Below are positions 11,338 to 40,216 of a stretch of DNA of 61,126 bases, piece after piece. Both the position numbers and the translations under genes were made by a program. The stretch comes from a virus (lineage: Duplodnaviria; Caudoviricetes), in IMG/VR virus record IMGVR_UViG_3300025305_000017, positions 1-61,126 of that record, one strand, 5' to 3'. The notes beneath the pieces are model-generated. The model worked only from the letters and a program-made list of their open reading frames with translations, was not told the DNA's origin and did not search any database. How positions within the stretch are numbered: position 1 is the first letter of the stretch; each line of letters starts with the position of its first letter.

Positions 11338-11644
11338 GAACCGCGAGTGCCGCAACCGGCTTCTCGCAGAGAATTATCTACAGCAACGCACGATGGGGCA
11401 GGCGGGGATCATTTCCCGTTTGGGTCAGGCGTTTGGCCTTAACGAGGCATACATCTACAAGCTCCTCGCGATCCATCGTAAGCAGAACCCAGACATATGG
11501 AACGCTCCCGAACAATTATTGATGCAGCCACAAACTCTGCACGGCGAAAGACTGATGGCCTCTAACGCCATCATAGAGCCACACAGGCGGGTAAGCAGGT
11601 GGCAACGGTTCCTCAACAAAATGTCTGTGAAACTAGGAGTATAA
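11324..11644 (+). CDS. Hypothetical (possible HTH) protein
   Basis: Operonic ORF with RBS; helix-turn-helix-like segment. Confidence 0.55.
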   Translation: MKGRKNRECRNRLLAENYLQQRTMGQAGIISRLGQAFGLNEAYIYKLLAIHRKQNPDIWNAPEQLLMQPQTLHGERLMASNAIIEPHRRVSRWQRFLNKMSVKLGV

Positions 11645-11645
11645 G

Positions 11646-18457: not shown

Positions 18458-21400
18458 CTACCTCCCTAGCTGAAAAGCTTCCTGTCTCATAGCTGGTAGA
18501 TCCTGTACAGCCAGTAACTCATCCTGCGTAATGTCGTCAATCAAAGCCCTCTTTTCCTCACCTGACATGTCGCCTTCCATTATACTCTTTCTCTCCTCCC
18601 TGAGGTCAGCAAGTATCTGAGCAATAGCATTCACCTCTTGCTCCAAATCCAGCAACGCAGCCCTCTTGTCGGCGAACTCCTCACTCTTAACGATGGTAAG
18701 CTCACCTTTTTCCAACATATCATAAGTACCCACCGCCTGCGTCACAGCTTCCCTTAGTTGATAGAACTGTGTCACCAAACCACGGGCATCGGGGCGCGCA
18801 AAGAAGCGCCTGATAAATGGATACTCGGTAAGCTTGCGAGTCTGCGTTTCACCCAGTTCATCATCAACCGAGCGCACCAACTGATCAACCGTATCAAGCA
18901 ATACCGTACCCAGCGTACCGCCGTATCCCTTGATCATGTGATCGATCTTGATCGGAGAGTAATTGATCGCCTCCCCTAACTCACGCGCCAGTCCTGACGT
19001 TCTACTGGCATAACGATACCCCGGCTCAATGCCCTTTAGGTATTGCCCTTCGATCTCACGTCCCGTCCAGAAACTATAGTTAACGAGAGCTTCTCCTAGA
19101 GGAAGAACCGCTTGAGGTATAGGATTAAACTCGAACGTATTAACCAACCCCCTTCTCAGGGATTGCGTCACATCAAGAGGGACATCTTGCCCGAGGAACA
19201 AAGCCATTAACCTCTCAGGTATGGTCTTGAACAGGTATCCAACCTCAAACGGTATGGGTATCTTGATAGGCGGCCCGTCATATCCGGGGATCCACGACGA
19301 TGGAATGATCCAGTAGTTGTCCTTTACCTCGGGGTTTTGATTGATGTATTCCTCATCGTCATGCACCAAAGTCCAGTAAGCTGCACTGCTCATTCCTACC
19401 AGCAATGACCTCATCAGGAAGCGGCGTTTGACAATGTCGGACTCTGGTCGTGCAGCAAAGCCGGGCCTCCCCATAGACGATCTATAAAGCACGTCGAGTC
19501 CCTGTATCCTAGCGTTCAAGAAGGGCACCATGACAGCGATATTCTGAATTAAGGCAGAAGAACCCCTAGCCGAGAAGTTGATAACTTCCTGTGCCTCCCA
19601 GAAAGCCTGCACTTCATCGCCAGTCTCTTTTAATACCCTGTTGTAAACAGCAATTCTGGTAGCAGCATCTGACGCCCGCGAACCTGTGCCGGTTACATCC
19701 CATAAATACTTGAATGGGTTGCGAATAGCCCGCCTCATCTCAGAAGGATACTGATACTTCTGAAGTTCCTTTTCGATAAAGGTGGTCATCTTGGTAGGAT
19801 CGCCACCAAAATCAAACCCTGTCATCAAGCCTGCGGAAGCCAGTGCGTTAGCCGACTCATCCCCACGCACAGCACTGTACATCCCTTTCATGGTGCCAGC
19901 TAATGCACCAGTCTTGCGCCCGCTAGTAACCCATGCAGACAACGAGTCACGCAGCATGTTAGCGGCCATGAAGTCTGGTGATCTGGTGATCATCTCCCTC
20001 AGGAAACGGGCTGGCATACCAAACAGATTAACCCACGGCGGGATCCGCTGATGTTCTAAGTAGTTAAATAGCGATGAAAAAAGCAGTTGGTCTCCCACAA
20101 AGAGAGTCATAGACTTACCTTTGACTCTGAAGGTTATCGCCCCCGGTGTCCTGATCTTGGCCCTCACCGTTGTCTCAGGCTCTACCAAGACAAGGTTACG
20201 CATCGCACGCTGCACCCCGACATTCATCATGCCCGTTTGTACAGCAGCTAAAGCATTCTCGGTTAGGGTATCAAGGAATCCTCCAATGGGCATTCCGCCT
20301 TCTACTACCGACACCTCAAGATTGGGGTGCTCTTGCTTTAGTTTCTTAGCATAACCCTTTGCGACTGCCTTCTGATGAGACTCAAAGGTCGTTGGAAGAC
20401 GGGTTACTATCTCTTCTCCATTAATGGTCTCTTTGGTAACGATAGTCCATATCGTTCCCTTGCCAGAGAGAGGGGGAGGAGGCCGCGTAGTAATGCCGCT
20501 AAATACCTGCGTCTCCCCCAGCACCTCTTCATATTTTTGGTCAAGTTGCCTGTAAAACGGAACGTAATCCGCGGTCTCTGTCCATTGGTCGGCCTTCTTA
20601 CGGTCGATAACCCCTGTGTCTACTAAAAGATCCACGAAGTAGCTGTTCCACACCTGATAGTTCTTAAATATCTGATCGAAATCTAGGAAGGTATCCTGTC
20701 CCGTAGCTATTATCTTTCGCGCAATGGCATCTTCCGTTAAGGCTGGGTCACCGATTATACGTTGGATCTCAAGAGGCGTGTTGCCGTACCCTAGATACTC
20801 GATGATCTGATCCTGCGTTAAGAGCCTCTCCCTACCCTCTCTCAGCAAGCGCGCTGCCCTGCGCCCGATAGCATAGGCATGGAAAGTACGGAACCTATTG
20901 CCCTCACGCAGGGGTTCGATGATGGGTATCAAACCTGTAGGCGTACCAGCAATGGGACTAGGCGACAGAGAGCCATCGATGTTGGTTTGCATTGCATCTT
21001 TGGGAATGTTTTTAACGGATGTACCGCCATTGGCATAAACAGGGACGCCCTTGGAAAGAGCATAGGCAGTTATAGCCGTTCCCCTTCTGGCCGAACGTAA
21101 AGCCGTCCACGCAGACGACGCCGCACTCAGGAAGCTAGCGTACTTTGTATCCGACTCAGCCAAATAAACATCAGTCCGACGCGCAGGATCCCACATATCA
21201 ACAACGCTTTGACGGAACCACTTGAAAAAATCCGTGTAACTATCTAGCGGCGTGCTACCGAGCATACCAAGATTGGTTAAAACCTTGCTTCCAAGAGTCT
21301 CGTCGGTGGTTTGTGCGGCAGAAATCATACTTAAATCAACATCACCAACGCCCTCTTCCTTGTTTAAAAACGAGAAGGCCCGTGCGGCTTGGTAGGGACG

Positions 21401-24400
21401 CTTGTGCTTGTCCTTGCGGGTGTAGCCCTTGCGGCTACGCACCACCCGCTTCCTGTACTTGGGTGTGCGCAAGTCCTCGGCAATGACGTTGCGCTGACGC
21501 TCTTCCTCGAAAGCCTTTTTGCCCGCCTTGTCCTTGATAAAGGAGCGCGCTTCCTTGGAAGAGAAAATCCTACGCTGGATCTCATCCTCAAGCTCCAACG
21601 CATCGATGATGGGGTCTGCCATAGAGGCAGAGATGTTGCGCGTCTCTCCTGCAAAGAGGGCTGAGAGGTTCGCCATCTGCGGGATCGAGTCGATGATGCG
21701 GTCAAGCCTGCTACCCTCATAGCGTGATCCCACAGCAGGGTGACCCCGTACCTCAATGCGGTTGTCGCCGCTTTGTATGGTTAAGGTCGCCCGGTCAGGA
21801 CGTTGGTCGAGAGTGAGGCGCATCCCGTGGCCGCGGAGGCTGTCGTATTGGGTATCGGTTATGTCGTAGAACGGTCGAGCGGCTTTTGCTTTAGCTCCTT
21901 CTGCAACCCCTTTAGCAACTGCGCCCCTAGGTCGAACGCCCGCGCCCGCCCTTTGAGTGACCTGAACTCTTTTAACGAGTTCTTTGATTCTGCTCGCTCT
22001 TTCCGTGAGCGCTTTCTCGTAGTCTCTGACATTGTTTAAGTCCATTCCTTTTCTTACTTGGTTGAAAGCCCATAGGGCAGCTTGTGTTTCTATTGGCGTC
22101 CAACGCAATTCATTAGCCACCTTGGTGATAAGACGTTGCGCCTCTAAAACCATTCCCTCAGTCGGGCTGTCTCTATTGAAAAGCAATTGAGCGATGTGCC
22201 GGTCAACAACCACCGCTTCATCCGCATCGCGCATGGCCTGTATCATGTCGGGTATTTTCTTGCCCGCAAAATAACGCGCTCCGCCGCCCGGTAACTCAGT
22301 AGGTGGCTTACCAGCCCTTTCCCGAAGAGTTCCCTCCCTAGATGGGAGCCTTCCCATGAGACGATTGATGTTATCTACCACCGGATCCAATAAGAGCTTC
22401 GGTGTAGCAGTTTTGCTAAGAATCCCAAGAGGGTCGCCGGTCTTGATAGCTTCATAAACTACCAGCGCCAGATCAATGTTACGATCAATCCGCTTCTGCT
22501 GGCTGGTGATGGATATGATGTCGTTGAAAAGCTGCATGTCATCACCAAATAGCTCATGCAGAATAGGACGATGGCGCTCATACCAGTCTCGATAATTTCT
22601 TGCTGACTTGGCGTCCTTAATAAGCTGAGTAAAGGTGCGCCTAGATGTAGGCGCTCTGGGCTTACGAGGTAAGACAGGGTACTCTCCTAGCTGTACGGCA
22701 CCCGCAACCATGCGCCGTGCTTCCTTAACCTTGTTGGCTTCATCAGCAAGGATGGCGCGCACTTCACCGGGGTCTACACCGGGAGTATCTTCGGTGATCA
22801 CACCGCTCAAGACATCGTTCTCGAATGCCATCTGGCGGATACGCATGTCTACTTGAGAGGGGCGTAGTAGTTCATCTACTGGAGAAGGACGTAGCGGCTC
22901 AAGAATAAACCGTGGAGTTTCAACTGTAGCAAACTCAGTGTCTAGTGATTGTAAATTAGCCAAGAACTTATTAACAGCAGCGGCACTATCAGACGCTACA
23001 TATCCCTTGAAGTTACCGCTGTCCCAGAACTGAGCTACCGTTTCAAAATTATCTACGAGGATATCTTCAGTTGCTTCCTCGGAGATCATGTTCTTGTGCA
23101 TACCCTCCAGCGTTTCTCGGCTCTTCGCGGTCATCTCTTTCACGCTATAATAGCGTGACTTGAACTTATTTTTCTTTGCCTCCTTCTGATCCCACGCTGG
23201 ACGAGCAGCCATCCCGTCCTTCTCGAATACTTTTTCTTCAATGATGACCAAGCCGTTCTTTTTAGCCAGTTCCTTCATGCGTTTGATTTGAGGCTCACGG
23301 TCAGGAGAAATGAATTGGAATACCATAGCCTCATGGACAACATCATATTTTTTAGGGGGCTGGAAGTAGTAGATAGGAGTGCCATCATCCTCTGCCCACG
23401 CGAGAGTTCCTTCCTGCTCGCGTGATCCAAAGGCTTCTAATTTATAGTCAGAACCGGGAACTGGATCTTTCTGAAAAACCTTAGCCATTTCTATATTGGG
23501 ATCAATGCCAGTCGTTTTGATAGCACCCCCAGATAGAGATGTGATGGTTTTAATTAAAGCCCCTTCCGATGCCCCAACATCCAACATGGTGGAACCGTCC
23601 CCGTATGTGTTGACGATAGCCTCTGCCACAGCCAACTGCACTTCCCCAAAACCGGGAATGCTGGTCTTTATGTGATGCTCGAAATTACCCTTCCACTTAT
23701 CATACAGAGCCGGAACGCCAAAGTAATCGGTAAGACCAATGACTGGAATATATGCGTTACCCGTAGAGGGACGATGTTTGACTCCCAGAGTCGCTGCTGT
23801 AAAAAAATCTGTGTAATCCCTACCAGTTCCGGTCATCACCCGCGCCATCTTGGTCACGGCAGGTTTCTTTAGCTCTAGCTTAGGCATCGTTGGAGGAGAT
23901 CCCACCATCGACCGCGCCATCTTTGGCTTCTTTGTGCCCTTGGCAAGGAACGCATTTACTGAAGCTTCTATAGCTTCTGGAGAAAGGTCACCGAACTGAT
24001 ATTCCCCTAGCGCCTCCATCTTTGTCAGCGCCTCTACCTTCCTTTGGGTAGCTTTGGGTAGCACAGGGTGTGCCGTCTCAAGATAATAGAAAGGCCCTGC
24101 CTCTAAAGTGTCGAGAGCGAGACGTTGGAGACCGCCCCTATGTGCGGGCATACCCGGCATCTCCTCGGGAACGACAAGATCGAACCAACCTCTGATGGGA
24201 TGTGTAGATGCAGGATCATTCCACTCGATCCCTATCTTGGTCGGGGAAGCTATCCTCATCTTCTCCCCTTGATCTATGGTTATAGCAGGGTTGTTCCTCG
24301 GAGCGCCTTTCTCACGGTTCCAATAAGCATCCAACAATGCAGCCACACCCTGCGTTGCATTCTTATAGGGAGTGAAGGCAGCAAATTCCTCGTCGTGCTC

Positions 24401-27400
24401 GGAAGCATGGGCGAGACCGAAATCCTGTGGAGTACCCCGTGGCACAAGAACACGATACTCGTTGCCAGCTACACGCACCCTCCCCCATACGATGGTGGGG
24501 TTGCCAGCAATGTCGCGTCTGGTTTCCAGAGCAAACGCAGAGGCCGGTAAATTGGCGTAGCGGCGGGATTGTTTGACCTTACGCTCCCGTATGGCATCGG
24601 CTAATCTTTGTGCATTACGATTTTCAGCGTTAAACGCTTCCTCATCTATCCGAAAAGCAACTAGTTTCACATCATCAGGGTAAGTATCAAGAGCTACGTT
24701 AGCCCTCTCAACATCTTCAGAGGGTCCGCGTGGAGTAGTGGGGGTTTCGACAATCAATTCTCTCTTTGTTGGCGACCTCTCCACCGCAAACTTTACATCA
24801 TCCTGTTGAATATCTATTGGAGGCCCTAATTCAGCACGATCTTTAGCAATGCCAATGTCATCGAAGGGCACATACCAGCCACTAATGGGTGCAGATAGAT
24901 CAGCGTTAGGAGCGTCAGGAGTACCAAGAAGAGTTCCTAAATCTTCCCGTAACAATCTTGAGTAAACTCGATATGCATCACCCAAGGGATTTTCAAGATA
25001 TCCTTCTGATGGAATCGTCAGAGCCTCAAGGGTTCTCAGGTTTTGAATAGTAGGATCATTATCCCACTCCCCAATGATGAAATTTAATTCATTCTCCTCA
25101 TGTAGCTCTATCCCGGGGAGGCTAACAAAGTCCTGCTTTCTCCAAAATTTATCTAACGCAGTCTCAATGGGTTCTGGCTGGAAAAGAAGATCAGTTTGCG
25201 GGGTGCCCTGCAACCTGACGCGCGGGTTGCCATCATCATCCAACTCACGAACTGGTCTTTTGAGAAGGAGGTCGTCTAATTCATTAAATTGCGTAGACAG
25301 TCCCTCCCAATTAGGAGCGTAAACCTCGAATATTTCACTCCCATCATCCGCAAGCTCCGCGTGAATATAGCCAGTGTTCTCCCCCATAGAAGGTGGCAGC
25401 TTAACCTGCCCATTACTTACATGCCTAACCAGTTGAGCCATACCCTCGTGCGATATAACATAAGCGTCCCACACATAAAGCTCGCCCTTGTTATCGTAAG
25501 CAAAACGTAACTCGGCTCTCTTTCCCACACGCCCAACCAGTCCTTCAGCATGATCTCTCCTGTACTTTTGCGCCATCCTTGTTATCACATGTCGAGAGGG
25601 ATTAATCCTTACCTCCTCAACCTCAGGCTCATAAGTACTGTGAGCGAAAGCTGCCGCTACTTCCTCACCAGTAAACCTTCTGCCGCGTGACCTCCCTACT
25701 TTCTCCTTATCTATGGCACTCATCTCCTCGTCGATAAGAGGATCCCCGATCATGGTGTCTTCGATAGGAAGAAGCCCTATTTTCTGAGGCGCAAAGGGGC
25801 GCTCTTCAATAGGCAGTGAGTCTGCCCGTTTGGCTGGGTCAATGCCGAGACGGTGGAAATTGAACCAAGCGTTGTTTCCCAGTGTCTCAGTAGCCAAAGC
25901 CCAGCGCGCCCACGGACTAGCCATCATACGCGCATGATTAACGTAGGCTGCCTTTCCCCCGAACTTACCCAACGAAAGAGGTGACATGGTGTGAGCGTAG
26001 TAGTCATGCACAGCCCGTAGCACATCATTGTACAACAAGAACGTGCCGTTCATATCGACACGCCCGCTCTGTTTTATGAGGGGATGGTTGGAAGAGAAGT
26101 CACTTTCGTCAGTCTTGAGGATATAGAGATGATTGTTGTTCATAACATCATCTCTCATGGCTGCGCTGTTAGCGTATGGCTCCCCCTCTCCCTCGAACAC
26201 CTCTACCTTGACAGGCAGGGCGTCGAACTGACTAATCGACTCTCGCTGAAGTTCCGTATAGGCTCTTTTAACAGCAGGATTCCCGCTGTCATCATCCGGC
26301 ATAGCGTCGTAGTTGTCGGCTATCCTCTCAAAGGATGTTCTTTCTTCTGGAGTGAGGGTGGTTTGTGGGACGGCAGTGGCAAAGGGCAGCCCACGCAGGA
26401 ATTGAGCTATTCGGTGACTGGTTCTGTTTCCTTCGTGGTACGCCGGGAGACGAAGTGTGCCTGATATCTCTTGATACCCGTTTGTGGCGGCAAATCCACT
26501 ACCGTAAGCCCAGAATCTTCTAATGCTTCTGTTAGCTCGTGATATGCTTTTTCCAAGGGATTGGCGGGCGCGGTTGGCTTGTTGTTGGAACTCTTGGATG
26601 GCGGCTGTGTCATTAGGATCTCCCCAGTAGTATGCCTCTAAATATGTATCAGTTACCGTTAGGCCGGGCAAGCCTGATGACTTAATGACCTCATCGATCT
26701 TTGCCCGCGATAATGGTTTAGGCAAAAGATAGCGAACTGCAATAGTGTTATACGACCCATCTGGATGAACGAACCCGGGAATGTTATTGTTGGGGTCACC
26801 ATCCAAAACGTGGAGTTGTTCTTGATTGAAGTTGGTGGAGAACTGCTTGAGGGCAACCAGCGTATCCTGCCTGTCCGGTTCAGCAAAGCCCACCAGCAAT
26901 CCAACTGATGGCTCACCCTCTCCCGCATAAACCCCCTGCGAGGGGAGTATCTGGAAAGTAGCTGTGGGAATACCGCTCAACAAGTAGGTCAGGGCATCAG
27001 TGGCAATGTCCTGCAACAGGTGAATGGCGTCTTGATTGCCCGTTTGGGCCTGCTCCTGTAAAGCAGCAAGGCCGGGGATCTCAGCATTAACGACCGACAG
27101 GTTGGAAGCTATCTGATTGACAGGGACATCGTCTATGCTCTTGACCTCGCTGCGGTCGAGAACGTCCTGATCCCAAATAACGTAGTTATAAGTACGACTA
27201 TCGCGTAACTCTATCGACCCCGGGTCCGCTGACCATTCTTCTAAAGTCTCTTTTAAATCGCGAGCATCTCTGAGTGTAGATCTTAGATTTTGGGTATAGC
27301 GTCTATTTGCCGCTCTTCCTTTAGGACCAAAAGCAGGTTCTGTCGCTAGAGCAAGAGACGTTTGCAACCGTTCCACCGAAGCCGTGGCCTGCTCTAGCGC

Positions 27401-30400
27401 AAGATCAACATCCCCTGCGGTAGCACGCACAGCACGAGATGCTGCGAGATAGCCTAAATGGTACGGATTGTTTTCATCTATCTCTTCGCCATTATAAAAA
27501 ACACCGATTGGTTTATCCCGACTCAACTGATCCCAATATCTAAGACCCGGAACACCTTCGTCAGCCAACGCCAAAGAAAGAACCTTCTTGGCCTCTCCCC
27601 GCTCTATGCCTTGTTTCTTCTCAATCGCCTCAGTAAGCGCGCGATAAATACCATTAACGGTTCTCTTGGGGTCCAACTGGTATGGTATGTACTTCTGAGG
27701 CACTCCGCTTACCACATTGGTCAGAGCCTCCTGCACTTCTGGAGATTGCTTGTCGAATGCCAGATCAGCATCCATAAACAGCGCCATGTCGGCATCTGGA
27801 ACGTCTATTTCATAGAGGGTAGGCGCGTCTATGGCTGCCCTGACATCTGTACCAGCAGCAATCCATTGATCTATTAGTTGGAGTGCCTCAGAAGTAACTG
27901 CATCCGCTGCTGGTCCGATTTGATATACAAGCGAGTCTAACGATCCGCTTAAATAATCTCTCGCCAACTTTAATAACCGCTGTGGATCAGCACCTAGAGC
28001 TTTCTCTTCTTGTGGATTTCGATAACTACCAAAGAGATCGTTAAGCGCTGCTATTTTATGGCCCCGTTCATGGCTCACAATACCGGAGCTAAGGTCCACA
28101 GCACTGGGCCTAAGGTCTCCAGTCTCCCACCTACCCCGTAGAGATGGATGAGGAAGCGACCTACGCCCCCCTGCATACTCAAGAACCATTTGCAGAATGT
28201 AATTAGCATACGTTAATGGAGAAACCAGTTCCTCTAATGACGGCATTTCCGAGGCAGGCACCACGGGATAACGTCCCCCAACAGGTCTGAGGGGGTTGGG
28301 AAGAACGCCGCCTATTGCACCTTTGTATTCATCACCAAGATGTTGGAGACCCGGCTCTTCCCACGTTTTTTGAGGAACACCATCTATAACAATCTCCCTG
28401 ACAGCATCCTGATTCCTCCACTCCTGCGCACGATCAGCCCTATAAGCCGCACCCGTATCCCGCACCTGCCCCGCATAATAACCCCACCCCTCCATAGTGG
28501 TGTCCTCTCCAGTACCCTGAAAAGCCAGATCTGGCTTGCCGAACACCCGATCCAAAGCCTTACCCCACGGCACGGGACTACCGCTGAACGCGCGCGCCTC
28601 TTTAACCCCCTCCTGCTTTTCCTTCTCAAGCTTCTTACTTAGACTTTCCTCCAGTTCCTCTGGGAAGTCCTCTGTTCGCGCCCCAGTCGGAATAAAGCCA
28701 GCAGGAGTGGGATCAATGATGCGATCAAACACTTGCGCGGCGTTGTAGATTTTGGCGTCAGCAAGACCCCCCTTCAAATTCCTGAAGAAATTGAGGATAC
28801 GCTGCCATATTGTCAGGGGGCGGCCCTTGAGAAAGTTCTGCCCGCTGGCGTGTCCCCTGAACAACTCGGCAGCCACCTCTTCAAGCTGCTCCGTCTCAGA
28901 GAGATCGGAGTAAGTCTCGCGCACCACCTCCATGACGCTCTTAACGGAGCCATCGTCTCTAAGCTGCCCCGTCCAATGAGGAACTTCATTGGCCGCTTCT
29001 GTTAAAGCTTTTATATCGGCAGCATCCAATGTCTTCATATCGACCAGCGCATGGATGGTCTCGTGGTCAAGCAGACCAGCCATGTAACGAGCCATCCATT
29101 TGGGATTCTTGAGAGTGGCTGGAGGTAAGCCATCAAGAGCAATCAAGATCGCTCGCTTAACAGCGGCCTCTTGAGGAATAAATATCGCCTCGTCCCCAAC
29201 CTTCTGACCATATATGCCAGCAATGGTATCGGTAATTATCAGTGGTACCTTGTCTCCTAGATTAGAATACGAGCCAAAGCGACGTAGCAGGTTCTTGCGT
29301 ATCTGACTGAGGATGGCGGGGGTGATATCGGGCTTGATGGTGGCAGTCCGAACAGTATCGGTAAGAGTGGAGATATCTGGAATAATCTGCTTCTCGGCAG
29401 GACCGATGTCCACATGCACAGGATCAATAGCCGACGTAATGATCTCTTTGGTCTCTTCCAGAATAGCCGGTGCCTCTCCACCCACGTCTTCATCGACAGG
29501 ACTGATACCCGGCAGGGCAGCAGGCGGCGTTGCGTCAATGGTTTCTTCTATGATGGGGGGTTCGGGGAGGCGGGTAGTCGGGATAGCTGCCGCAGTCTCA
29601 TCCAGAATAGGAGGCTGTGGAATAGGCTCAAGAGGTATCGCTTCAGCCGTTTCTTCAAGGATCGCGGGCGGCGCGAGCGGCGGCCCCTCTTCTGCTACCG
29701 TTTCAAATTCTTCGGGGAGTCCTTCAGTGGGGTCGGGTGGGGGTACTGGATCCGGTGTGGGGCGAGCAAAGGGGCCACCCACGCTACCAACAAACCCACC
29801 AGTAAGGCCACCAATAGCAATGGCATTAGCAATATTCTCCACCCGCTGTGCCAACTGGATGTCTTCCGGGGAAGCGCCCGTAGCCTCGGTGTATTCACCC
29901 GTCGTCTCCTGAATGATCTGCTGCGCACCTTCGGTAAGCGCCTCTACAGTGAGGCCCTTCTTGCCGAACTGGAGCATCCGCTTGGCAACTGAGTGTGCGA
30001 TTTTTTCTTTGGTTTTTTTCCTGAAGGGAGCAGTGAGGGCAGAGAGACCGGCCATATCCAAAGCGGCCATCGCCACACCCGGACCCAAAGCTATGCTAGC
30101 CGCCGTGTCAGGATCTACCTTTTCCTGCTCAACCAGATAATCATAAGTATCGCCATAGTTCTGGAGGAAAGATCCCGTACCAGCCCCAACACGCATCCCT
30201 ACCCCTACGCCGATAGGGCCACCGGGTGCCCCTGCTATCCCACCAGCAACAGCACCAGCCAATGGCACACCTAAGGAAGCAACGCCTTGCCCTAATCCTT
30301 GACCGACGTAATCCAGAAAAGTATCAAGGTCTTTGATTTGAGTGAGGGAGGGGACGCGAGCAACAAAAGCTTCTTTATCAGGCTCTGCTTCAAAGTCACT

Positions 30401-30667
30401 GACGATCTCAGAACCCCAGTCAGTGACTGTATCTGAGCCAAAGAAACGACCCAGCCCTTCGATGGCGCGCCCAGCCAAACGTGGGTTCTCTTGGGTAAGA
30501 GTGCCCCAAAATGAGCCAGCGAATTGTTCACCAAACCCCGATTCGCTAGGCTGAGGAGGGGGAGCTTCGTAGGGGAATTGTTGATTGATGTACGCTAGAG
30601 CTTCATCTTGCGTAGCGTCATCAGGAAACGAGAACTGCTGCCCTTCAAATTCATAAAGCTGTGCCAT
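18458..30667 (-). CDS. Giant polyvalent virion/ejection protein (4069 aa) with C-terminal LPD38-like region
   Basis: HETIH zincin motif, ART-like, PBECR-like, SAM-dependent and glycosylase-like segments; C-terminal IKIPIPFEVG..FKTIPER and SPIKIDH..KGY.G motifs; last gene of the ejection module. Confidence 0.85.
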   Translation of the reverse strand: MAQLYEFEGQQFSFPDDATQDEALAYINQQFPYEAPPPQPSESGFGEQFAGSFWGTLTQENPRLAGRAIEGLGRFFGSDTVTDWGSEIVSDFEAEPDKEAFVARVPSLTQIKDLDTFLDYVGQGLGQGVASLGVPLAGAVAGGIAGAPGGPIGVGVGMRVGAGTGSFLQNYGDTYDYLVEQEKVDPDTAASIALGPGVAMAALDMAGLSALTAPFRKKTKEKIAHSVAKRMLQFGKKGLTVEALTEGAQQIIQETTGEYTEATGASPEDIQLAQRVENIANAIAIGGLTGGFVGSVGGPFARPTPDPVPPPDPTEGLPEEFETVAEEGPPLAPPAILEETAEAIPLEPIPQPPILDETAAAIPTTRLPEPPIIEETIDATPPAALPGISPVDEDVGGEAPAILEETKEIITSAIDPVHVDIGPAEKQIIPDISTLTDTVRTATIKPDITPAILSQIRKNLLRRFGSYSNLGDKVPLIITDTIAGIYGQKVGDEAIFIPQEAAVKRAILIALDGLPPATLKNPKWMARYMAGLLDHETIHALVDMKTLDAADIKALTEAANEVPHWTGQLRDDGSVKSVMEVVRETYSDLSETEQLEEVAAELFRGHASGQNFLKGRPLTIWQRILNFFRNLKGGLADAKIYNAAQVFDRIIDPTPAGFIPTGARTEDFPEELEESLSKKLEKEKQEGVKEARAFSGSPVPWGKALDRVFGKPDLAFQGTGEDTTMEGWGYYAGQVRDTGAAYRADRAQEWRNQDAVREIVIDGVPQKTWEEPGLQHLGDEYKGAIGGVLPNPLRPVGGRYPVVPASEMPSLEELVSPLTYANYILQMVLEYAGGRRSLPHPSLRGRWETGDLRPSAVDLSSGIVSHERGHKIAALNDLFGSYRNPQEEKALGADPQRLLKLARDYLSGSLDSLVYQIGPAADAVTSEALQLIDQWIAAGTDVRAAIDAPTLYEIDVPDADMALFMDADLAFDKQSPEVQEALTNVVSGVPQKYIPYQLDPKRTVNGIYRALTEAIEKKQGIERGEAKKVLSLALADEGVPGLRYWDQLSRDKPIGVFYNGEEIDENNPYHLGYLAASRAVRATAGDVDLALEQATASVERLQTSLALATEPAFGPKGRAANRRYTQNLRSTLRDARDLKETLEEWSADPGSIELRDSRTYNYVIWDQDVLDRSEVKSIDDVPVNQIASNLSVVNAEIPGLAALQEQAQTGNQDAIHLLQDIATDALTYLLSGIPTATFQILPSQGVYAGEGEPSVGLLVGFAEPDRQDTLVALKQFSTNFNQEQLHVLDGDPNNNIPGFVHPDGSYNTIAVRYLLPKPLSRAKIDEVIKSSGLPGLTVTDTYLEAYYWGDPNDTAAIQEFQQQANRARQSLGKSISRANRSIRRFWAYGSGFAATNGYQEISGTLRLPAYHEGNRTSHRIAQFLRGLPFATAVPQTTLTPEERTSFERIADNYDAMPDDDSGNPAVKRAYTELQRESISQFDALPVKVEVFEGEGEPYANSAAMRDDVMNNNHLYILKTDESDFSSNHPLIKQSGRVDMNGTFLLYNDVLRAVHDYYAHTMSPLSLGKFGGKAAYVNHARMMASPWARWALATETLGNNAWFNFHRLGIDPAKRADSLPIEERPFAPQKIGLLPIEDTMIGDPLIDEEMSAIDKEKVGRSRGRRFTGEEVAAAFAHSTYEPEVEEVRINPSRHVITRMAQKYRRDHAEGLVGRVGKRAELRFAYDNKGELYVWDAYVISHEGMAQLVRHVSNGQVKLPPSMGENTGYIHAELADDGSEIFEVYAPNWEGLSTQFNELDDLLLKRPVRELDDDGNPRVRLQGTPQTDLLFQPEPIETALDKFWRKQDFVSLPGIELHEENELNFIIGEWDNDPTIQNLRTLEALTIPSEGYLENPLGDAYRVYSRLLREDLGTLLGTPDAPNADLSAPISGWYVPFDDIGIAKDRAELGPPIDIQQDDVKFAVERSPTKRELIVETPTTPRGPSEDVERANVALDTYPDDVKLVAFRIDEEAFNAENRNAQRLADAIRERKVKQSRRYANLPASAFALETRRDIAGNPTIVWGRVRVAGNEYRVLVPRGTPQDFGLAHASEHDEEFAAFTPYKNATQGVAALLDAYWNREKGAPRNNPAITIDQGEKMRIASPTKIGIEWNDPASTHPIRGWFDLVVPEEMPGMPAHRGGLQRLALDTLEAGPFYYLETAHPVLPKATQRKVEALTKMEALGEYQFGDLSPEAIEASVNAFLAKGTKKPKMARSMVGSPPTMPKLELKKPAVTKMARVMTGTGRDYTDFFTAATLGVKHRPSTGNAYIPVIGLTDYFGVPALYDKWKGNFEHHIKTSIPGFGEVQLAVAEAIVNTYGDGSTMLDVGASEGALIKTITSLSGGAIKTTGIDPNIEMAKVFQKDPVPGSDYKLEAFGSREQEGTLAWAEDDGTPIYYFQPPKKYDVVHEAMVFQFISPDREPQIKRMKELAKKNGLVIIEEKVFEKDGMAARPAWDQKEAKKNKFKSRYYSVKEMTAKSRETLEGMHKNMISEEATEDILVDNFETVAQFWDSGNFKGYVASDSAAAVNKFLANLQSLDTEFATVETPRFILEPLRPSPVDELLRPSQVDMRIRQMAFENDVLSGVITEDTPGVDPGEVRAILADEANKVKEARRMVAGAVQLGEYPVLPRKPRAPTSRRTFTQLIKDAKSARNYRDWYERHRPILHELFGDDMQLFNDIISITSQQKRIDRNIDLALVVYEAIKTGDPLGILSKTATPKLLLDPVVDNINRLMGRLPSREGTLRERAGKPPTELPGGGARYFAGKKIPDMIQAMRDADEAVVVDRHIAQLLFNRDSPTEGMVLEAQRLITKVANELRWTPIETQAALWAFNQVRKGMDLNNVRDYEKALTERASRIKELVKRVQVTQRAGAGVRPRGAVAKGVAEGAKAKAARPFYDITDTQYDSLRGHGMRLTLDQRPDRATLTIQSGDNRIEVRGHPAVGSRYEGSRLDRIIDSIPQMANLSALFAGETRNISASMADPIIDALELEDEIQRRIFSSKEARSFIKDKAGKKAFEEERQRNVIAEDLRTPKYRKRVVRSRKGYTRKDKHKRPYQAARAFSFLNKEEGVGDVDLSMISAAQTTDETLGSKVLTNLGMLGSTPLDSYTDFFKWFRQSVVDMWDPARRTDVYLAESDTKYASFLSAASSAWTALRSARRGTAITAYALSKGVPVYANGGTSVKNIPKDAMQTNIDGSLSPSPIAGTPTGLIPIIEPLREGNRFRTFHAYAIGRRAARLLREGRERLLTQDQIIEYLGYGNTPLEIQRIIGDPALTEDAIARKIIATGQDTFLDFDQIFKNYQVWNSYFVDLLVDTGVIDRKKADQWTETADYVPFYRQLDQKYEEVLGETQVFSGITTRPPPPLSGKGTIWTIVTKETINGEEIVTRLPTTFESHQKAVAKGYAKKLKQEHPNLEVSVVEGGMPIGGFLDTLTENALAAVQTGMMNVGVQRAMRNLVLVEPETTVRAKIRTPGAITFRVKGKSMTLFVGDQLLFSSLFNYLEHQRIPPWVNLFGMPARFLREMITRSPDFMAANMLRDSLSAWVTSGRKTGALAGTMKGMYSAVRGDESANALASAGLMTGFDFGGDPTKMTTFIEKELQKYQYPSEMRRAIRNPFKYLWDVTGTGSRASDAATRIAVYNRVLKETGDEVQAFWEAQEVINFSARGSSALIQNIAVMVPFLNARIQGLDVLYRSSMGRPGFAARPESDIVKRRFLMRSLLVGMSSAAYWTLVHDDEEYINQNPEVKDNYWIIPSSWIPGYDGPPIKIPIPFEVGYLFKTIPERLMALFLGQDVPLDVTQSLRRGLVNTFEFNPIPQAVLPLGEALVNYSFWTGREIEGQYLKGIEPGYRYASRTSGLARELGEAINYSPIKIDHMIKGYGGTLGTVLLDTVDQLVRSVDDELGETQTRKLTEYPFIRRFFARPDARGLVTQFYQLREAVTQAVGTYDMLEKGELTIVKSEEFADKRAALLDLEQEVNAIAQILADLREERKSIMEGDMSGEEKRALIDDITQDELLAVQDLPAMRQEAFQLGR

Positions 30668-30684
30668 TCAGCAACTCATCACAT

Positions 30685-33159
30685 CTAGAATGGATAGACT
30701 TGTCGTGGCGCGGCAACAATGTCGCCACTGTTAGGATCACGAATAGTCGTGTGAACACCTGCTGCCGTCTGTGGAGCGACACCAGTAGCCGCTCTGATTT
30801 GTTCTAGTTCCTTTTTATATTCCTTTAATAGCTCTTTCTTCACCTTATCAGGATCATCTCCATACAGATCCTTTAGCCTACGTTCAACCCGTTTTCCTGC
30901 GAGGCTCCGTACCCACTGATGATAAGTTTGAAGGGAAGCCTTTGATGCAGCATAAGGAGATTGAGCACTGCCAGCGCCCCAAGCCTTTCTTATTGCTTCT
31001 CTTGCCCCGGGGAGGGGGTTACCGGGTTTACCATCGACATCCTCAAACCACCTTTTCCAATGAGGACTTTCCTTGTGGCTTGCTAATATATCTTCTTCAA
31101 ATCTCTGATAGGCGTCTGGTTTTCTCTTAAGAGCCGCCGCCTGTAATTCCAATGTAGCCCGTGCCAAGTCCTCTTTAGCACCCGCCGCTCTGGAGGCAGC
31201 TAATCCCTTCATGCCCTCCAAGCCACCTCGTCCCAATGAACCAAGGGCAGTTGCTCCGGGCAGTTGCGCTGCCGCCGCCGTCCCAAATCCAGCGCGCGCT
31301 AAAAATTCCCATAGATTCTGTTGGTCTCTTTCTTTTTGGCCCGCCAAGAGAGCACTCGCAGCAGAGGGTATTCCCGCAGCATCATCAACAGTAGCGTCAT
31401 CAAGTGCACCCGGCTTCCCAGCAGCCATATTCCTGAGAGCACCCTGCCTCCAACTTCCCGGCCCCCCGAAAGCAACGGTCCTCGCATAAGCTTCACCCAT
31501 ATCAGGAGGAGCAAAACCCGGCGGAGTAGATGCCGCTACTAACGGCCTCTCACTCTGACTCAGAGCTAACTGCAAGTTAGGTGGATCAGGAATAGGATCA
31601 GCAATTTTATAACCCCCGACAAAGGGCAATCCCCCAACTTTCTCAGCATAAATCCTCTTAAATGCTTCTTTATCCGCAGCACGTTGCTGCTCCATGTTTT
31701 TTCTGTATATCACATCGTTAATCGGGGCTGCTTCAGAAAAACGACCAGTCTGAATACCTGCAAGCTCTGGGACTAGAGGCTGTACTGTTGATGGCGGAGC
31801 ATCAGGCGAACCAGAAAGCACAGTCTCTTCCTTGAAGCGTTCAGGAACCGGCAGCCCAAGCCGCCCCACTAACCGCCTACCCGCGCCCCCTAAATCAATT
31901 GCGCCTTGTAGCACTTTTTCACCTATGCCACCCGCCTGACCTATGCTTGTGCCAGATGCTGCTACCTGTGGCAGTCCACCTGTAGCTCCAGTTGTAGCTC
32001 CAGACATGAACTGCGGCGGAAGCCATGTCCCAGATAAGGGAACTGCTTCCTCAATTCGATTTAACCAATCCACGGCCATCAGCGTTTCATCAGGTGACAC
32101 AATAGGTTGTTCAGCAAGCTGTACTGGAGGCTGTGCTGTAGGCACCGCAGAAATAGCAGCCTCTTCTTCTGTTAGCGGTTTATCCCCGGCAGTAAAGAAA
32201 ACATTCCCGCCAATATCCACCTTATCAGGTGTCAAGGGCGTTGTGAGGTTGCCTTGAGAATCATAGAAATCTTTAAGACTCTTGCTAATAGTCCCTCGTT
32301 TGGCAGTTAAGGTGGGGTTCTCAAAATTGAGCGAGCCACCAACAGGATTCGCCGCATTGAACGACCGCCCATCAAAGAGCGCCCCCGACACGAAGTATCT
32401 CGTCCAGCCGCTTGCTGGTAAAAGCTTGTCTACATCATGTCCTGCCTTCCCCACTGGCTCAAATTGTTGTTTTGCTTCAAGAACTTCCTTAACACTATCC
32501 CCCCATTTGCCATCTCTGAGACGATTTATAATTACTGCCGTTACTGCAAATATGCCCTTTACATCATCCCCAGTTTCCTGATCAACAACCCTCGCAATTC
32601 TGTCTTTATCTTCATCAGTTAGGCTCTCAATCACCTCCTCAATAGACTTAACCCTACCTCCCTTAGCCATCCTCACAACACCACCTTGCTCCATCATCAT
32701 GGGGGGAACAGCCTGACGGGCCATTGGTGGAGGCACTGCTCTGGCAAGAGCCTGCATCTGAGGAGGAACACCCGGTGACATCTGCCGTTGGGGTAGCGCC
32801 CTGATACCCTGCTGGGCTTGCGGGGGCATACGTCCCTGCATCATCTGAGGAGGAGGCCCCTGCATCATTTGAGGTGGAGGACGGCCCTGCATCATCTGAG
32901 GTGGACGGCCCTGCATCATAGCCTGCGGCCCCATTAGAGGACGGGGCTGCTGTGGTGATGCGCCACTAATAACATCATCAGCAACCGTAGTCTCCGCTTC
33001 CTCTACATCAGCCCTATAGGCGTCTTCCATACGCTTACGGCGATCCAACTCACTAATGATTAAATATGTATCAACAGCCCCGGGGTTCTGTACTTGCTGT
33101 AGCAAAACTTCCTTAGAAAGACCCTTCAGAATCTCTGTTATCTGTAAGATATTGGTCAT
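30685..33159 (-). CDS. Ejection protein with SleB/Hydrolase_2 cell-wall hydrolase domain
   Basis: IARVV..E....G..AV.AVI.NRL..G.W..SV..V....QFE; P/Q/M-rich repeat; start reassigned to ATG 33159 (MTNILQ). Confidence 0.75.
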   Translation of the reverse strand: MTNILQITEILKGLSKEVLLQQVQNPGAVDTYLIISELDRRKRMEDAYRADVEEAETTVADDVISGASPQQPRPLMGPQAMMQGRPPQMMQGRPPPQMMQGPPPQMMQGRMPPQAQQGIRALPQRQMSPGVPPQMQALARAVPPPMARQAVPPMMMEQGGVVRMAKGGRVKSIEEVIESLTDEDKDRIARVVDQETGDDVKGIFAVTAVIINRLRDGKWGDSVKEVLEAKQQFEPVGKAGHDVDKLLPASGWTRYFVSGALFDGRSFNAANPVGGSLNFENPTLTAKRGTISKSLKDFYDSQGNLTTPLTPDKVDIGGNVFFTAGDKPLTEEEAAISAVPTAQPPVQLAEQPIVSPDETLMAVDWLNRIEEAVPLSGTWLPPQFMSGATTGATGGLPQVAASGTSIGQAGGIGEKVLQGAIDLGGAGRRLVGRLGLPVPERFKEETVLSGSPDAPPSTVQPLVPELAGIQTGRFSEAAPINDVIYRKNMEQQRAADKEAFKRIYAEKVGGLPFVGGYKIADPIPDPPNLQLALSQSERPLVAASTPPGFAPPDMGEAYARTVAFGGPGSWRQGALRNMAAGKPGALDDATVDDAAGIPSAASALLAGQKERDQQNLWEFLARAGFGTAAAAQLPGATALGSLGRGGLEGMKGLAASRAAGAKEDLARATLELQAAALKRKPDAYQRFEEDILASHKESPHWKRWFEDVDGKPGNPLPGAREAIRKAWGAGSAQSPYAASKASLQTYHQWVRSLAGKRVERRLKDLYGDDPDKVKKELLKEYKKELEQIRAATGVAPQTAAGVHTTIRDPNSGDIVAAPRQVYPF

Positions 33160-33163
33160 AGCG

Positions 33164-34246
33164 CTATCCAGTAAGGGTTTTGTAAGCACCAAGAGCACCA
33201 AGGCCAGCACCAGCCAACTGACCCGTAAATGATCCCGGTGCTTGGTATTGGTAAACCTCGGACTGAGGTGTAACGGGCACTCCCTGTAATAGGCCAGCCA
33301 AGAACTGAAGCTGCCTACGCTCAAAGTCCCGCTGATTAAGGAAGTCCTGATAGGCCAAATCAAGGTTGGCCTGATCCATTTTCTGATAAGCAGCCCCCAC
33401 TCCCTGCAACGCCCCAGCTTGAGAAAGCTGTTGCTGTAATATTTGAGGGTCCATTCCAGCGGCGGCAGCCGCAGCCTGTAATCCATACTGCGCCTCCTGC
33501 AACCTCTCTGCTCCCCCAAGTTGAGCAGCCTGTACGCGAGCAGCACGATCCCGCTGGAACTGATCCATTGCCTGCTGTTGAGCTAAACGAAATCCCTCCG
33601 AGCGTTGACGGCTTTCAAGATCGCCCATACGCTCCTCGAATTGACCGCGTGCCAATGATTCTTCCACGGCAGCACGGCTTCCCGTGCGCGTTCCACGCCC
33701 CACACGGGCAGCTTCCCTTTGCTGGGCCTGTAACCCAAACTGCGTTTCAGCACTCCTCCGCTGCCCACCAAGAACATCCTCCAAATAGGGATCAAAATAG
33801 TCCTTATAATCATAAGATGGCCTGTATTCCCCTATAAGCCCGCTGTAGCCCTGTGCTTGAAATGGGCGTGGTCCGAACCCGGCAGCAGGAGAAGGCCCCT
33901 CAGCACCCCCTACAGGAGCCTGAGGAGGCGCCCCCACCTCACCAGCAGGGGGTGGGGGAGCATACGGACGGTTAAGAATATTGGAGTAATAGTCCTGCGC
34001 AGCGTACATTCCCTGAGGAGCGGTTGCGCCTGCCTGTGTCTGCAACCCAAATCCTAGGCTCTGCTCCGGTGCAAATGGGGCAATGCGTGGTCCCGGGTAA
34101 CCCAAATAGGGCTGATCGGTAACCGTTTCGCCTCGCGTTAAAAGACGCTCGTAGTAAGGCTGTGCGTATTCGGGAAGACTAGTCTGTGTAACCGTGCTCT
34201 TAGTGGGCGTAGGGTTGACACCCCCGCCACCTCCACCTTTACTCAT
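33164..34246 (-). CDS. DNA transfer/pilot (ejection) protein
   Basis: MSKGGGG start, LPEYAQPY, Gln/Ala-rich, Gly-rich hydrophobic C-terminus. Confidence 0.65.
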   Translation of the reverse strand: MSKGGGGGGVNPTPTKSTVTQTSLPEYAQPYYERLLTRGETVTDQPYLGYPGPRIAPFAPEQSLGFGLQTQAGATAPQGMYAAQDYYSNILNRPYAPPPPAGEVGAPPQAPVGGAEGPSPAAGFGPRPFQAQGYSGLIGEYRPSYDYKDYFDPYLEDVLGGQRRSAETQFGLQAQQREAARVGRGTRTGSRAAVEESLARGQFEERMGDLESRQRSEGFRLAQQQAMDQFQRDRAARVQAAQLGGAERLQEAQYGLQAAAAAAGMDPQILQQQLSQAGALQGVGAAYQKMDQANLDLAYQDFLNQRDFERRQLQFLAGLLQGVPVTPQSEVYQYQAPGSFTGQLAGAGLGALGAYKTLTG

Positions 34247-40214: not shown

Positions 40215-40216
40215 CT

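Follow-up and report, generated by a model that had tools for sequence, protein, structure and literature searches.

A recurring short peptide motif at cargo-module joints of a giant phage polyvalent virion protein, with a possible role in self-processing

Comparable systems and the protein studied here

MARTX toxins contain an internal cysteine protease domain that cuts between effector domains. In T4-like and phiKZ-like phages, prohead proteases cut internal head proteins at consensus motifs, and these enzymes usually act on head proteins too. The joint motifs of polymorphic toxins are VENN in CdiA and DPxGL in Rhs. For phage polyvalent proteins, Iyer, Burroughs, Anand, de Souza and Aravind (2017, PMC5512222) predict that MPTase domains process them into functional units, yet the N4 virion RNA polymerase, in which an MPTase domain is present, is packaged unprocessed. 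What exactly LPD1 to LPD40 do is described there as elusive. Processing of such proteins has already been predicted, and we found no description of a site motif: the available text of that paper names no cleavage-site or joint motif, contains 'linker', 'boundar' and 'interdomain' 0 times, and has 'cleavage site' in a reference only.

The giant virion protein of a marine phage, here called P0001, is a 4069-aa ORF (18458-30667, minus strand) in the window, the whole 61,126-nucleotide stretch of DNA that was analysed. Within the virion module it is flanked by a 953-aa cell-wall-hydrolase protein and a lysozyme, and the terminase, portal, capsid, tail and ejection-type proteins are encoded on the same strand. 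Pfam LPD38 (PF18857) is matched at residues 3771-3951 (E = 1.9e-32, 113.3 bits against a cutoff of 27). With LPD38, several unrelated domains and a place among virion genes, P0001 is by its sequence a phage large polyvalent virion protein with a polyprotein-like build. Separate sets of homologues were obtained for its HExxH domain, module B, methyltransferase module, DUF7178-like module and LPD38 module. The modules are as follows.

28604-30667, minus strand: N-terminal module, residues 1-688; Gly-rich hydrophobic stretch, Pro-rich repeats and the HExxH domain
28703-29326, minus strand: HExxH...EE domain, zincin-like, residues 448-655; HETIH at 29051-29065, E596/E597 at 28877-28882
23924-24562, minus strand: module B, residues 2036-2248; in 16/16 relatives mapped
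22898-23839, minus strand: methyltransferase module, residues 2277-2590; PHROG 4752, E = 3.5e-16
21887-22711, minus strand: DUF7178-like module, residues 2653-2927; Pfam DUF7178 at E = 0.0024, sub-cutoff
21557-21874, minus strand: small module, residues 2932-3037; common to P0017, P0018 and P0028
18461-21379, minus strand: C-terminal conserved module (~970 aa), residues 3097-4069; includes LPD38 at 18815-19357

A PHROG virion structural protein matches residues 65-296, and Pfam Methyltransf_12/23 matches the methyltransferase module below cutoff. The best stretches for the DUF7178-like module span 694-980 and 704-978 of the query, and the module begins at 2643-2653 in the P0115 and P0120 matches.

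P0001 resembles MARTX as a giant delivered protein with an internal, here predicted, protease and short recurring sites in inter-module linkers. The protease class and the site differ and there is no homology; moreover, MARTX is a bacterial toxin directed against eukaryotic cells, and cutting is a prediction here. A short consensus motif is also shared with the prohead-processed proteins of T4-like and phiKZ/SPN3US-like phages, where packaged and ejected proteins are trimmed. There, a separate head protease cuts capsid and scaffold too, whereas no such gene was recognised here. As with VENN and DPxGL, a short conserved peptide stands at the border of swapped variable modules; those motifs mark one border before a C-terminal toxin, whereas P0001 has about ten copies and the motif class changes between lineages.

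Like the MPTase polyvalent proteins in the available text of Iyer et al. (2017, PMC5512222), P0001 is multi-domain and virion-delivered, with LPD38 C-terminally and one HExxH domain, but unlike those MPTases its HExxH domain has no Pfam MPTase match. It also resembles gp47 of phi24B and gp69/gp75 of Bcep22-like phages, very large LPD38-bearing virion proteins of podoviruses. Of these, gp47 was detected in virions and proposed as an ejection protein; the available parts of the sources report no processing sites for any of them (10.64898/2026.04.10.717836; PMC9144972). Aeromonas LPD38 proteins (MuF_C/InPase architecture in precomputed Pfam annotation), possibly related to gp47 to judge solely by shared domain names, have none of the four motif classes described below.

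A recurring peptide motif at module joints

K-x-[AS]-R occurs nine times in P0001, and each copy is followed by x-[F/M/Y] (9/9). The nine copies of K.[AS]R.[FMY] compare with an average of 0.17 over 2000 shuffles, none of which (0/2000) reached nine. The shorter patterns K.[AS]R and K.AR are found 9 and 8 times against 1.92 and 1.25 expected. The fraction of F, M and Y residues in P0001 is 0.089, giving P = 3.6e-10 for 9/9 at position +5. The motif was defined post hoc, on the data then tested, and K.AR is not among the top eight exact-residue patterns in an unbiased enumeration of P0001; relatives and controls therefore have to provide the independent support. In relatives P0003-P0016 the strict 6-mer is found 2-8 times, or K.[AS]R 3-9 times, where 0.1-1.5 would be expected, and KQAR and K.SR.Q rank highest among the de novo patterns of P0013 and P0015. 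The 149 other polyvalent-type proteins (360,849 residues) contain 19 copies against 18.7 expected, and none of them has three or more. Elsewhere in the virion module of the window, the other 23 ORFs together hold three copies of K.[AS]R.

We counted ten strict sites, namely the nine K-x-[AS]-R copies and QAARAF, and kept degenerate copies apart. All are confined to residues 689-3093; K-x-[AS]-R is absent from the N-terminal (688 aa) and C-terminal (973 aa) modules.

28586-28603, minus strand: site 1, KEARAF, residue 689; 39 residues past the HExxH domain
27953-27970, minus strand: KLARDY, residue 900; motif match without a detectable boundary, nearest HSP endpoint 18 residues off
27188-27205, minus strand: RDSRTY, residue 1155; degenerate, R for K; one HSP endpoint 1 residue off
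25673-25702, minus strand: KVGRSRGRRF, residue 1656; degenerate; 29 HSP endpoints within 10 residues
24776-24793, minus strand: KFAVER, residue 1959; lone copy of the motif type of other lineages; no HSP endpoint within 10 residues
24557-24574, minus strand: KQSRRY, residue 2032; start of conserved module B
23906-23923, minus strand: KMARSM, residue 2249; end of module B, HSPs end at 2237-2259
23834-23851, minus strand: KMARVM, residue 2273; directly N-terminal of the methyltransferase module
22709-22726, minus strand: KEARRM, residue 2648; HSPs end at 2649 and 2657
22592-22609, minus strand: KSARNY, residue 2687; within the DUF7178-like module, not at a boundary
21869-21886, minus strand: KAARPF, residue 2928; HSPs start at 2907-2940; aligned with ELYD of P0017
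21539-21556, minus strand: KEARSF, residue 3038; HSPs end at 3032 and 3058
21374-21391, minus strand: QAARAF, residue 3093; directly N-terminal of the conserved C-terminal module

A first-pass annotation of this DNA had listed eight of these sites, and every one is real and lies where it was placed, the 12-nt spans given there being the K-x-[AS]-R part. The looser KVGRSRGRRF that it put near 25690 corresponds to residues 1656-1665. Two strict sites were missing from that list (KLARDY at 900 and KSARNY at 2687). The x-[F/M/Y] that follows all nine K-x-[AS]-R copies had also been overlooked. The observation of a recurring motif is confirmed and is stronger than first stated.

Strict sites are within 10 residues of an internal BLASTP HSP endpoint in eight of ten cases, against a mean of 4.2 for random positions (P = 0.017, 20000 draws). 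The HSPs of seven relatives begin exactly at 2032 and face a KEAR or KQAR of their own. Right after KMARVM, at 2276-2281, begin 80 of the 150 best stretches listed for the methyltransferase, and the motif adjoins the domain start directly (KMAR-VM-TGTGRDYTDFF). The flanks of KVGR resemble the KEAR flanks of relatives ('IDEEMLDIASPD KEAR NF' versus 'IDEEMSAIDKE KVGR SR'). In close relatives K-[EQM]-[AS]-R is repeated at the joints of differing cargo cassettes; a cassette map shows that whole motif-flanked cassettes distinguish them, and P0011 and P0013 are similar up to 'APAD KQAR' and diverge beyond it. The earlier proposal that the motif delimits cargo domains is thus borne out by homology blocks that start or end at it and by the cassette-wise differences among relatives. 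It holds for the eight sites near block boundaries; the other two, at 900 and 2687, are inside modules with no detectable boundary, KLARDY falling within a stretch (755-946) that is missing from P0003. The motif is also missing at one clear boundary at least, the methyltransferase end at ~2590. As in a self-processing polyprotein, a short site recurs at domain joints, and by sequence comparison the same signature marks most cargo-module joints of P0001.

Codon usage at the strict sites is mixed: AAA/AAG (CAA at QAARAF), GAG/GAA, GCG/GCA/GCT (TCC at KQSRRY) and CGC/CGG/CGA/AGA. The 12-nt cores vary at nearly every synonymous position across the ten sites, and because the codons differ between sites, selection appears to act on the peptide. 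There is no DNA word common to the joints. The exception is the KMAR pair, whose 12 nt are identical (AAGATGGCGCGG), as the first-pass annotation had noted; its suggestion of recombination joints, taken as a DNA-level feature, finds no support in these codons.

The HExxH domain and the motif classes of its lineages

H535, E536, H539 and E596/E597 are invariant in 28/28 and 22/22 aligned homologues. The AF2 model of the domain is helical, with a mean pLDDT of 81.7 and 10-residue block means of at least 88 over model residues 71-190. H535-E-T-I-H539 lies in model helix 88-96, so that the HExxH is on a helix as in zincins and gluzincins, and E596/E597, candidates for the third zinc ligand, lie in model helix 144-160; the HExxH-to-Glu spacing of 57 residues is long. 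The domain has no match to a Pfam peptidase family or MPTase model, and Foldseek gave no match at E <= 0.001. VIA-align aligned it to anthrax lethal factor chains (Z 3.2-3.6, rmsd 3.6-6.2 over 76-86 residues), PPEP-2 (Z 3.6, rmsd 2.9 over 59) and 3dl1 (Z 3.6), but these zincin scores are within the tool's stated noise range and below those of unrelated helical matches (Z 5-6.3). The ESM neighbours carry LPD23, LPD1 or MuF_C; PF18838 LPD23 is present in 18-20% of members of the nearest clusters, and it has 0 occurrences in the main text of PMC5512222.

Among 10 close relatives aligned, conservation in the variable linker ~40 residues past the HExxH domain is confined to the first motif copy; its A, R and F are invariant and its K nearly so. 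In every lineage the position of the first copy, shortly behind the HExxH domain, is constant.

Distant relatives have the same HExxH...EE domain and other motifs (R[FY]SIDR, K[FY]SLx[RP], E-x-Y-D), partly at homologous joints. R/K-[FY]-[SA]-I-[DE]-R is found in three to four copies in P0019-21, and K[FY]SLx[RP] in four to six copies in P0032-37 and P0041. P0017 has six copies of E-x-Y-D. It keeps the flanking modules, and E-x-Y-D stands at or a few residues from the positions of KAARPF, KEARSF and QAARAF, with flanks of ~70% identity at these three homologous joints despite the change of motif. At the QAARAF position P0017 has ERYD and the relatives have K[LFAQM][AS]R-P-[IV]; its E-K-Y-D copy follows a few residues past the position aligned to KEARSF. 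A diverged copy of the HExxH domain goes with a different recurring motif, lineage by lineage. With a flag set at three or more copies and Poisson p < 1e-3, for four classes defined on the same proteins that were counted, 19 of the 36 proteins with the HExxH signature were flagged for exactly one class and none for two. Common descent makes the motif class vary together with the HExxH-domain lineage and with every other phage gene, and the link between motif and zincin is therefore not exclusive.

Candidate self-processing and its alternatives

Self-processing by the protein's own HETIH zincin-like domain is the best-supported reading. We hold it tentatively, as a serious candidate somewhat short of probable. 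The first-pass annotation had suggested it as one option. In its favour are the excess of the motif, its place at cassette joints, selection on the peptide, the tie to the HExxH domain, the lineage-specific change of motif class, the control proteins at chance level, the failure to recognise a separate head protease and the prediction of Iyer et al. The absence of Pfam peptidase and Foldseek matches, the low zincin Z scores, the two strict sites inside modules, the unmarked boundary at ~2590 and the unprocessed N4 virion RNA polymerase count against it.

There is a modest chance that the motif is left uncut and serves for docking or handling, as a signal repeated along exposed linkers; it might tether the protein to portal, scaffold or the inside of the capsid in assembly or be read during ejection. 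Peptide-level conservation, position in linkers and lineage-specific change would fit any co-evolving trans-acting reader, and some MPTase-bearing virion proteins stay intact according to the available text of Iyer et al. (2017, PMC5512222). Such a signal has no obvious reason, however, to sit exactly at joints or to abut a domain start as KMARVM does, it leaves the fixed distance behind the HExxH domain across lineages unexplained, and no partner was identified. Cleavage by a host enzyme or by a phage protease that escaped recognition, such as a head-maturation enzyme inside the prohead, is unlikely. The R at the fourth position suits a trypsin-like enzyme, internal head proteins cut at consensus motifs provide a precedent, Mu-like gpT is matched by the capsid protein, and the C-terminal portion of Mu-like protein I weakly and below cutoff by ORF 53318-54235 (E = 0.0054). 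The latter match spans only the last 75 profile positions, though, and the ORF is scaffold-like, with scaffolding proteins as its ESM neighbours. In the ten ORFs scanned, portal-to-capsid ORFs included, protease families were absent and neither Pfam nor PHROGs recognised a separate head protease. A prohead protease would usually be expected to cut head proteins at the same site, but K.[AS]R is found 0 times in the portal, scaffold-like and capsid proteins. The fixed place of the first copy just after the HExxH domain argues against another enzyme as well.

It is quite improbable that the motif is a by-product of cassette shuffling, a DNA microhomology for in-frame recombination of modules without a function as peptide. 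Relatives do differ by whole motif-flanked cassettes, P0011 and P0013 part at their KQAR, the KMAR pair is identical in DNA, and the phage has genes for a Sak-like annealing protein and for an exonuclease. The synonymous differences among the ten strict sites weaken this explanation, because they leave no shared DNA word; F/M/Y two residues downstream and its 9/9 co-occurrence are peptide features, and recombination alone does not explain a motif change at three joints of P0017 between ~70% identical flanks. Chance or composition in a long K/R/A-rich protein has a negligible probability. The post hoc definition and the rank of K.AR outside the top eight patterns would favour it, but it is contradicted by the shuffles, by the F/M/Y co-occurrence, by relatives in which the motif recurs at non-homologous cassettes, and by the 149 controls at chance level.

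For the motif in P0001, cutting, the enzyme responsible and its timing are all what we infer. On the self-processing reading, the protein would consist of an N-terminal module ending in the HExxH...EE domain, followed by exchangeable cargo cassettes and the ~970-aa LPD38 module, with K-x-[AS]-R-x-[F/M/Y] as a putative peptide-level recognition signal at the joints. Zincins in general have a hydrophobic S1' pocket, and the scissile bond may therefore lie just before F/M/Y. The protein's own zincin-like domain would most likely cut at the motif copies. The methyltransferase, the DUF7178-like and other cargo modules would thereby be freed individually, as would the C-terminal module, while the protein is still in the capsid or once it has been ejected into the host.

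Genome setting of the 4069-residue protein

The window, 61,126 bp long, covers the entire available genome sequence. The large terminase encoded in it is closest to those of the Pelagibacter phages HTVC027P and HTVC023P and of the seawater phage 023Pt_psg01 (54–58% amino acid identity). The phage is podovirus-like. Its virion genes lie on the minus strand and encode the terminase, portal, a scaffold-like ORF, a Mu-gpT-like capsid protein, tail proteins, ejection-type proteins, the 4069-residue protein under study (P0001) and a lysozyme. P0001 and its upstream neighbors are located as follows.

30685-34246, minus strand: 953-residue protein with a cell-wall hydrolase domain (PF07486) and 360-residue "DNA ejection protein" (PHROG 4287), directly upstream of the P0001 gene
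18458-30667, minus strand: P0001, between the 953-residue hydrolase-domain protein and the lysozyme

We place P0001 in the ejection-protein cluster because these two proteins adjoin it upstream. The Pfam domain LPD38 is found near its C-terminus (113 bits against a cutoff of 27). This domain places P0001 among the phage-type large polyvalent proteins of Iyer et al. 2017 (PMC5512222). The five large late proteins of 023Pt_psg01, the nearest phage by terminase (58% amino acid identity), gave no BLASTP match to P0001 at E ≤ 1e-3. Sequence searches of solved structures with P0001 and with profile A2 returned nothing below E = 0.26.

Three further features of the genome and protein were observed. 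A recombination pair, made up of an exonuclease and a Sak-like single-strand annealing protein (10193-12494, plus strand), could help cassette exchange. GC content is 0.431 at 40001-44000, against about 0.50–0.57 elsewhere; the stretch spans a 1271-residue tail-fibre-like ORF (40217-44032), and the drop suggests an acquired receptor-binding gene. Residues ~320-400 of P0001 (about 29470-29700, minus strand) hold proline-rich imperfect repeats, PPAILEETAEAIP / PPILDETAAAIP / PPIIEETIDATP, in which the pattern P.I.EE occurs four times against 0.08 expected.

The recurring motif and the cargo modules

P0001 repeats a short motif, K-x-[AS]-R-x-[F/M/Y]. The core K-x-[AS]-R occurs nine times (1.92 expected), and all nine copies are followed by x-[F/M/Y] (P = 3.6e-10, with F, M and Y together making up 8.9% of the residues). 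For the six-residue pattern the expectation is 0.17, and none of 2000 shuffles contained nine or more copies. All eight sites named in the first-pass annotation are present where it placed them, and its looser KVGRSRGRRF was found at residue 1656. It had overlooked two strict sites, KLARDY (residue 900) and KSARNY (residue 2687). Two variant copies complete the set.

Residue 3093: QAARAF, Q replacing K; the tenth strict site
Residue 1155: RDSRTY, a looser copy

All copies fall within residues 689-3093, and K-x-[AS]-R is absent from the N module (688 residues) and the C module (973 residues). The sites did not stand out by a simple score of polar residues in windows around them. The motif was defined post hoc, and an unbiased enumeration of exact patterns in P0001 did not place it in the top eight, so independent controls carry more weight here. 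Across 149 further polyvalent-type proteins (360,849 residues), the count of the six-residue pattern was 19 against 18.7 expected, and none had three copies. The 23 other virion ORFs of the window hold three K.[AS]R in total, with zero in the portal, scaffold-like and capsid proteins. Chance is, for practical purposes, excluded as the source of the motif.

The position of the sites was compared with the modular structure of the protein, which is summarized here.

Residues 1-688: N module
Residues 2036-2248 (23924-24562, minus strand): module B, present in all 16 mapped relatives, with the alignment consensus signature "FG..H...H..EF"
Residues 2277-2590: methyltransferase module
Residues 2604-2645 (22733-22858, minus strand): mini-element SQVDMRIRQMAFEND...RAILAD, between the methyltransferase and KEARRM; 65–74% identical in P0016 and P0017 and recognisable in P0257, in differing neighbourhoods
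Residues 2643/2653-2927/2929: DUF7178-like module, running from KEARRM to KAARPF
Residues 3097-4069: C module

BLASTP of P0001 against 103 homologues in a local database, leaving out the near-identical P0003, gave 215 internal HSP endpoints. For eight of the ten strict sites such an endpoint is no more than 10 residues away, against 4.2 at random (P = 0.017). Seven relatives have an HSP whose start is residue 2032 exactly, across from a KEAR or KQAR of their own. By the same alignments, module B ends at 2237-2259, a module at 2926/2940-3032/3058 is bracketed by sites 2928 and 3038, and the C module starts at about 3076-3093. Residues 1950-3130, run by phmmer against the whole library, matched 742 proteins at E ≤ 1e-3; in 80 of the 150 matches listed, the best stretch starts at residues 2276-2281, directly after KMAR (2273-2276). 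There are counter-examples. Sites 900 and 2687 lie within modules, and the methyltransferase ends (about 2590) without a motif, the conserved mini-element of about 40 residues coming next.

The set of relatives numbers about 16. Fourteen relatives (P0003-P0016, with C modules 58–95% identical) repeat K-[EQMxx]-[AS]-R, in copies such as "PD KEAR NF", "AD KQAR VF" and "KE KFAR PI", with "KESR xQ" in P0014 and P0015. De novo, KQAR is the top pattern in P0013 and K.SR.Q in P0015. A cassette map was made by cutting 17 proteins at motif sites and clustering the pieces. Most relatives have the order N, cargo, B, C. P0001 and P0003 have six additional motif-delimited pieces between B and C. Five small DKQAR-delimited pieces replace the long second module in P0013; an extra 171-residue piece is present in P0007, P0009 and P0010, and P0008 has one of 84 residues instead. 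P0011 and P0013 are alike as far as "APAD KQAR" and different beyond. Since these differences run from motif to motif, the motif delimits exchangeable cargo, and the earlier proposal of a linker that delimits the cargo domains is supported by both the HSP endpoints and the cassette map. Shorter or split forms at the C-module junction gave 11 matches; the six examined start mid-domain or come from short contigs and give no sign of a natural split at the motif.

The two KMAR sites (23834-23923, minus strand) are spaced exactly 24 residues apart, and a double site, KISR ... KFAR, has the same spacing at the module B end in P0005 and P0007-P0010.

The HExxH domain and lineage-specific motifs

A conserved domain occupies residues ~450-650 of P0001. 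H535, E536, H539 and E596/E597 are invariant in 28/28 locally aligned homologues and in 22/22 sequences of alignment A5. The AF2 model built on A5 is confident (mean pLDDT 81.7) and largely helical. No Pfam peptidase family was found in P0001, and Foldseek on the domain model found nothing at E ≤ 0.001. A wide structural search placed zincin catalytic domains (anthrax lethal factor, PPEP-2 and a metal-dependent hydrolase) no higher than Z 3.2–3.6, within the tool's stated noise range, and unrelated helical matches rank above them at Z 5–6.3. The domain is thus called zincin-like on the strength of its invariant HExxH and EE. ESM-Atlas neighbours, taken as a lead only, are polyvalent clusters with LPD23 (0.96 and 0.95; 18–20% of members), LPD1 or MuF_C. 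The P0001 HExxH region as a single query had no match among viral contigs, and a search with alignment A3 returned the same contigs again and one more. By tblastn against 50,697 phage records the domain had no match at E ≤ 1e-3, hence no cultured phage carrying it was found.

In every lineage the domain is followed by a variable acidic linker, with a short conserved motif about 40 residues on. An alignment of 10 close relatives shows conservation in this linker at K, A, R and F of the motif and nowhere else. Distant homologues with the HExxH domain have another motif at this place, and it recurs along the same protein, for example:

P0019/P0020: R[FY]SIDR, three to four copies
P0021: K[FY][AS]I[DE]R, three copies
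P0032, P0036, P0041: K[FY]SLx[RP], four to six copies
P0017: E-x-Y-D, six copies

In all, P0017, P0019-P0021, P0027, P0032-P0037, P0040, P0041 and P0047 each have their own recurring motif in 3–7 copies, of the kinds E-x-Y-D, R[FY]SIDR, K[LF]SLR, K[FY]SLx[RP] and Q-x-M-A-[AG]-P; those that carry the HExxH domain have one copy just after it. P0017 is highly identical to P0001 in the modules around residues 2930-3100, and has ELYD, EKYD and ERYD at, or a few residues from, KAARPF, KEARSF and QAARAF of P0001. Among 105 tabulated proteins, 36 have the HExxH signature; 19 of these were flagged, each for a single class out of three, and none for two. Among the 69 without it, only P0040 and P0047 were flagged, for a further class, Q-x-M-A-[AG]-P, the fourth. 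Because the classes were drawn from the very proteins that were counted, these counts are a description and not a test. Eleven polyvalent proteins without this signature were checked; all have HExxH, ten of them once and P0044 twice.

The motif has changed at all joints together while the flanks were kept, which points to a single reader whose specificity differs between lineages. Judged from the sequences, the HExxH domain is the obvious candidate, because the first motif copy is fixed behind it. AF2 on residues 448-760, including the tail (alignment A6, 11 rows), gave a mean pLDDT of 43.4, hence docking of site 1 in the active site is unreadable. A complex prediction of the domain with residues 2236-2295 scored 0.02, which is evidence neither way.

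Processing, docking or recombination

Cleavage of the motif copies by the protein's own zincin-like domain is the best explanation, and we hold it with nearly balanced confidence. The copies may instead be uncut docking signals, which we consider unlikely. Cutting by another protease appears more doubtful: no head protease was recognised in the ten ORFs scanned, which include those from portal to capsid protein, the ORF before the capsid gene looks like a scaffold, its match to Mu protein I being weak, below cutoff and confined to the C-terminal end of the latter, and the head proteins lack the motif.

That the sites are recombination scars only is improbable. The first-pass annotation had offered recombination joints as an option and had noted 12 identical bp at the two KMAR sites. 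The identity was borne out, and this is the sole identical pair among the ten strict sites; the joints fared worse, as no DNA word for recombination is shared among the ten. In the 12-nt cores, K is AAA or AAG (Q is CAA at QAARAF), E is GAG or GAA, A is GCG, GCA or GCT (S is TCC at KQSRRY) and R is CGC, CGG, CGA or AGA. Because synonymous codons differ between sites, selection evidently acts on the motif as a peptide.

We describe P0001 as a polyvalent protein whose joints carry an explicit, lineage-specific code. Beyond the proposed self-processing of P0001, we tentatively propose that LPD38-type polyvalent proteins of marine podoviruses may be polyproteins, in which an in-cis zincin-like protease and a private cleavage code at every cargo joint co-evolve in each lineage, as in RNA-virus polyproteins. 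The code would be K-x-[AS]-R-x-F/M/Y in P0001 and R[FY]SIDR, K[FY]SLx[RP], E-x-Y-D or Q-x-M-A-[AG]-P elsewhere. A common code would allow new cassettes to be inserted and correctly released.

In the searchable text of Iyer et al. 2017 (PMC5512222), MPTase domains are said to probably process polyvalent proteins into functional units, with P1 DdrB and DarA cited as processed and the N4 virion RNA polymerase as unprocessed. That text defines no cleavage site, and its main part contains none of the words linker, boundar- or interdomain. The LPD38 protein gp47 of phi24B is present in virions, with a proposed role in ejection, and the accessible part of that report gives no processing sites for it (10.64898/2026.04.10.717836). 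The JC1 paper (PMC9144972), in its accessible part, offers domain annotation only. In a full-text literature search, no report of a motif at the joints of polyvalent proteins was found.

The 2017 prediction was that the metallopeptidase domains of polyvalent proteins split them into individual effectors; a recurring, lineage-specific joint motif yields exact, testable site predictions. It lets the cargo of giant proteins be parsed into units without knowledge of their folds and supplies a rule for adding new anti-host modules. If cleavage is confirmed, this DNA phage would offer a parallel to viral polyprotein processing and a handle on what marine phages inject alongside their DNA.
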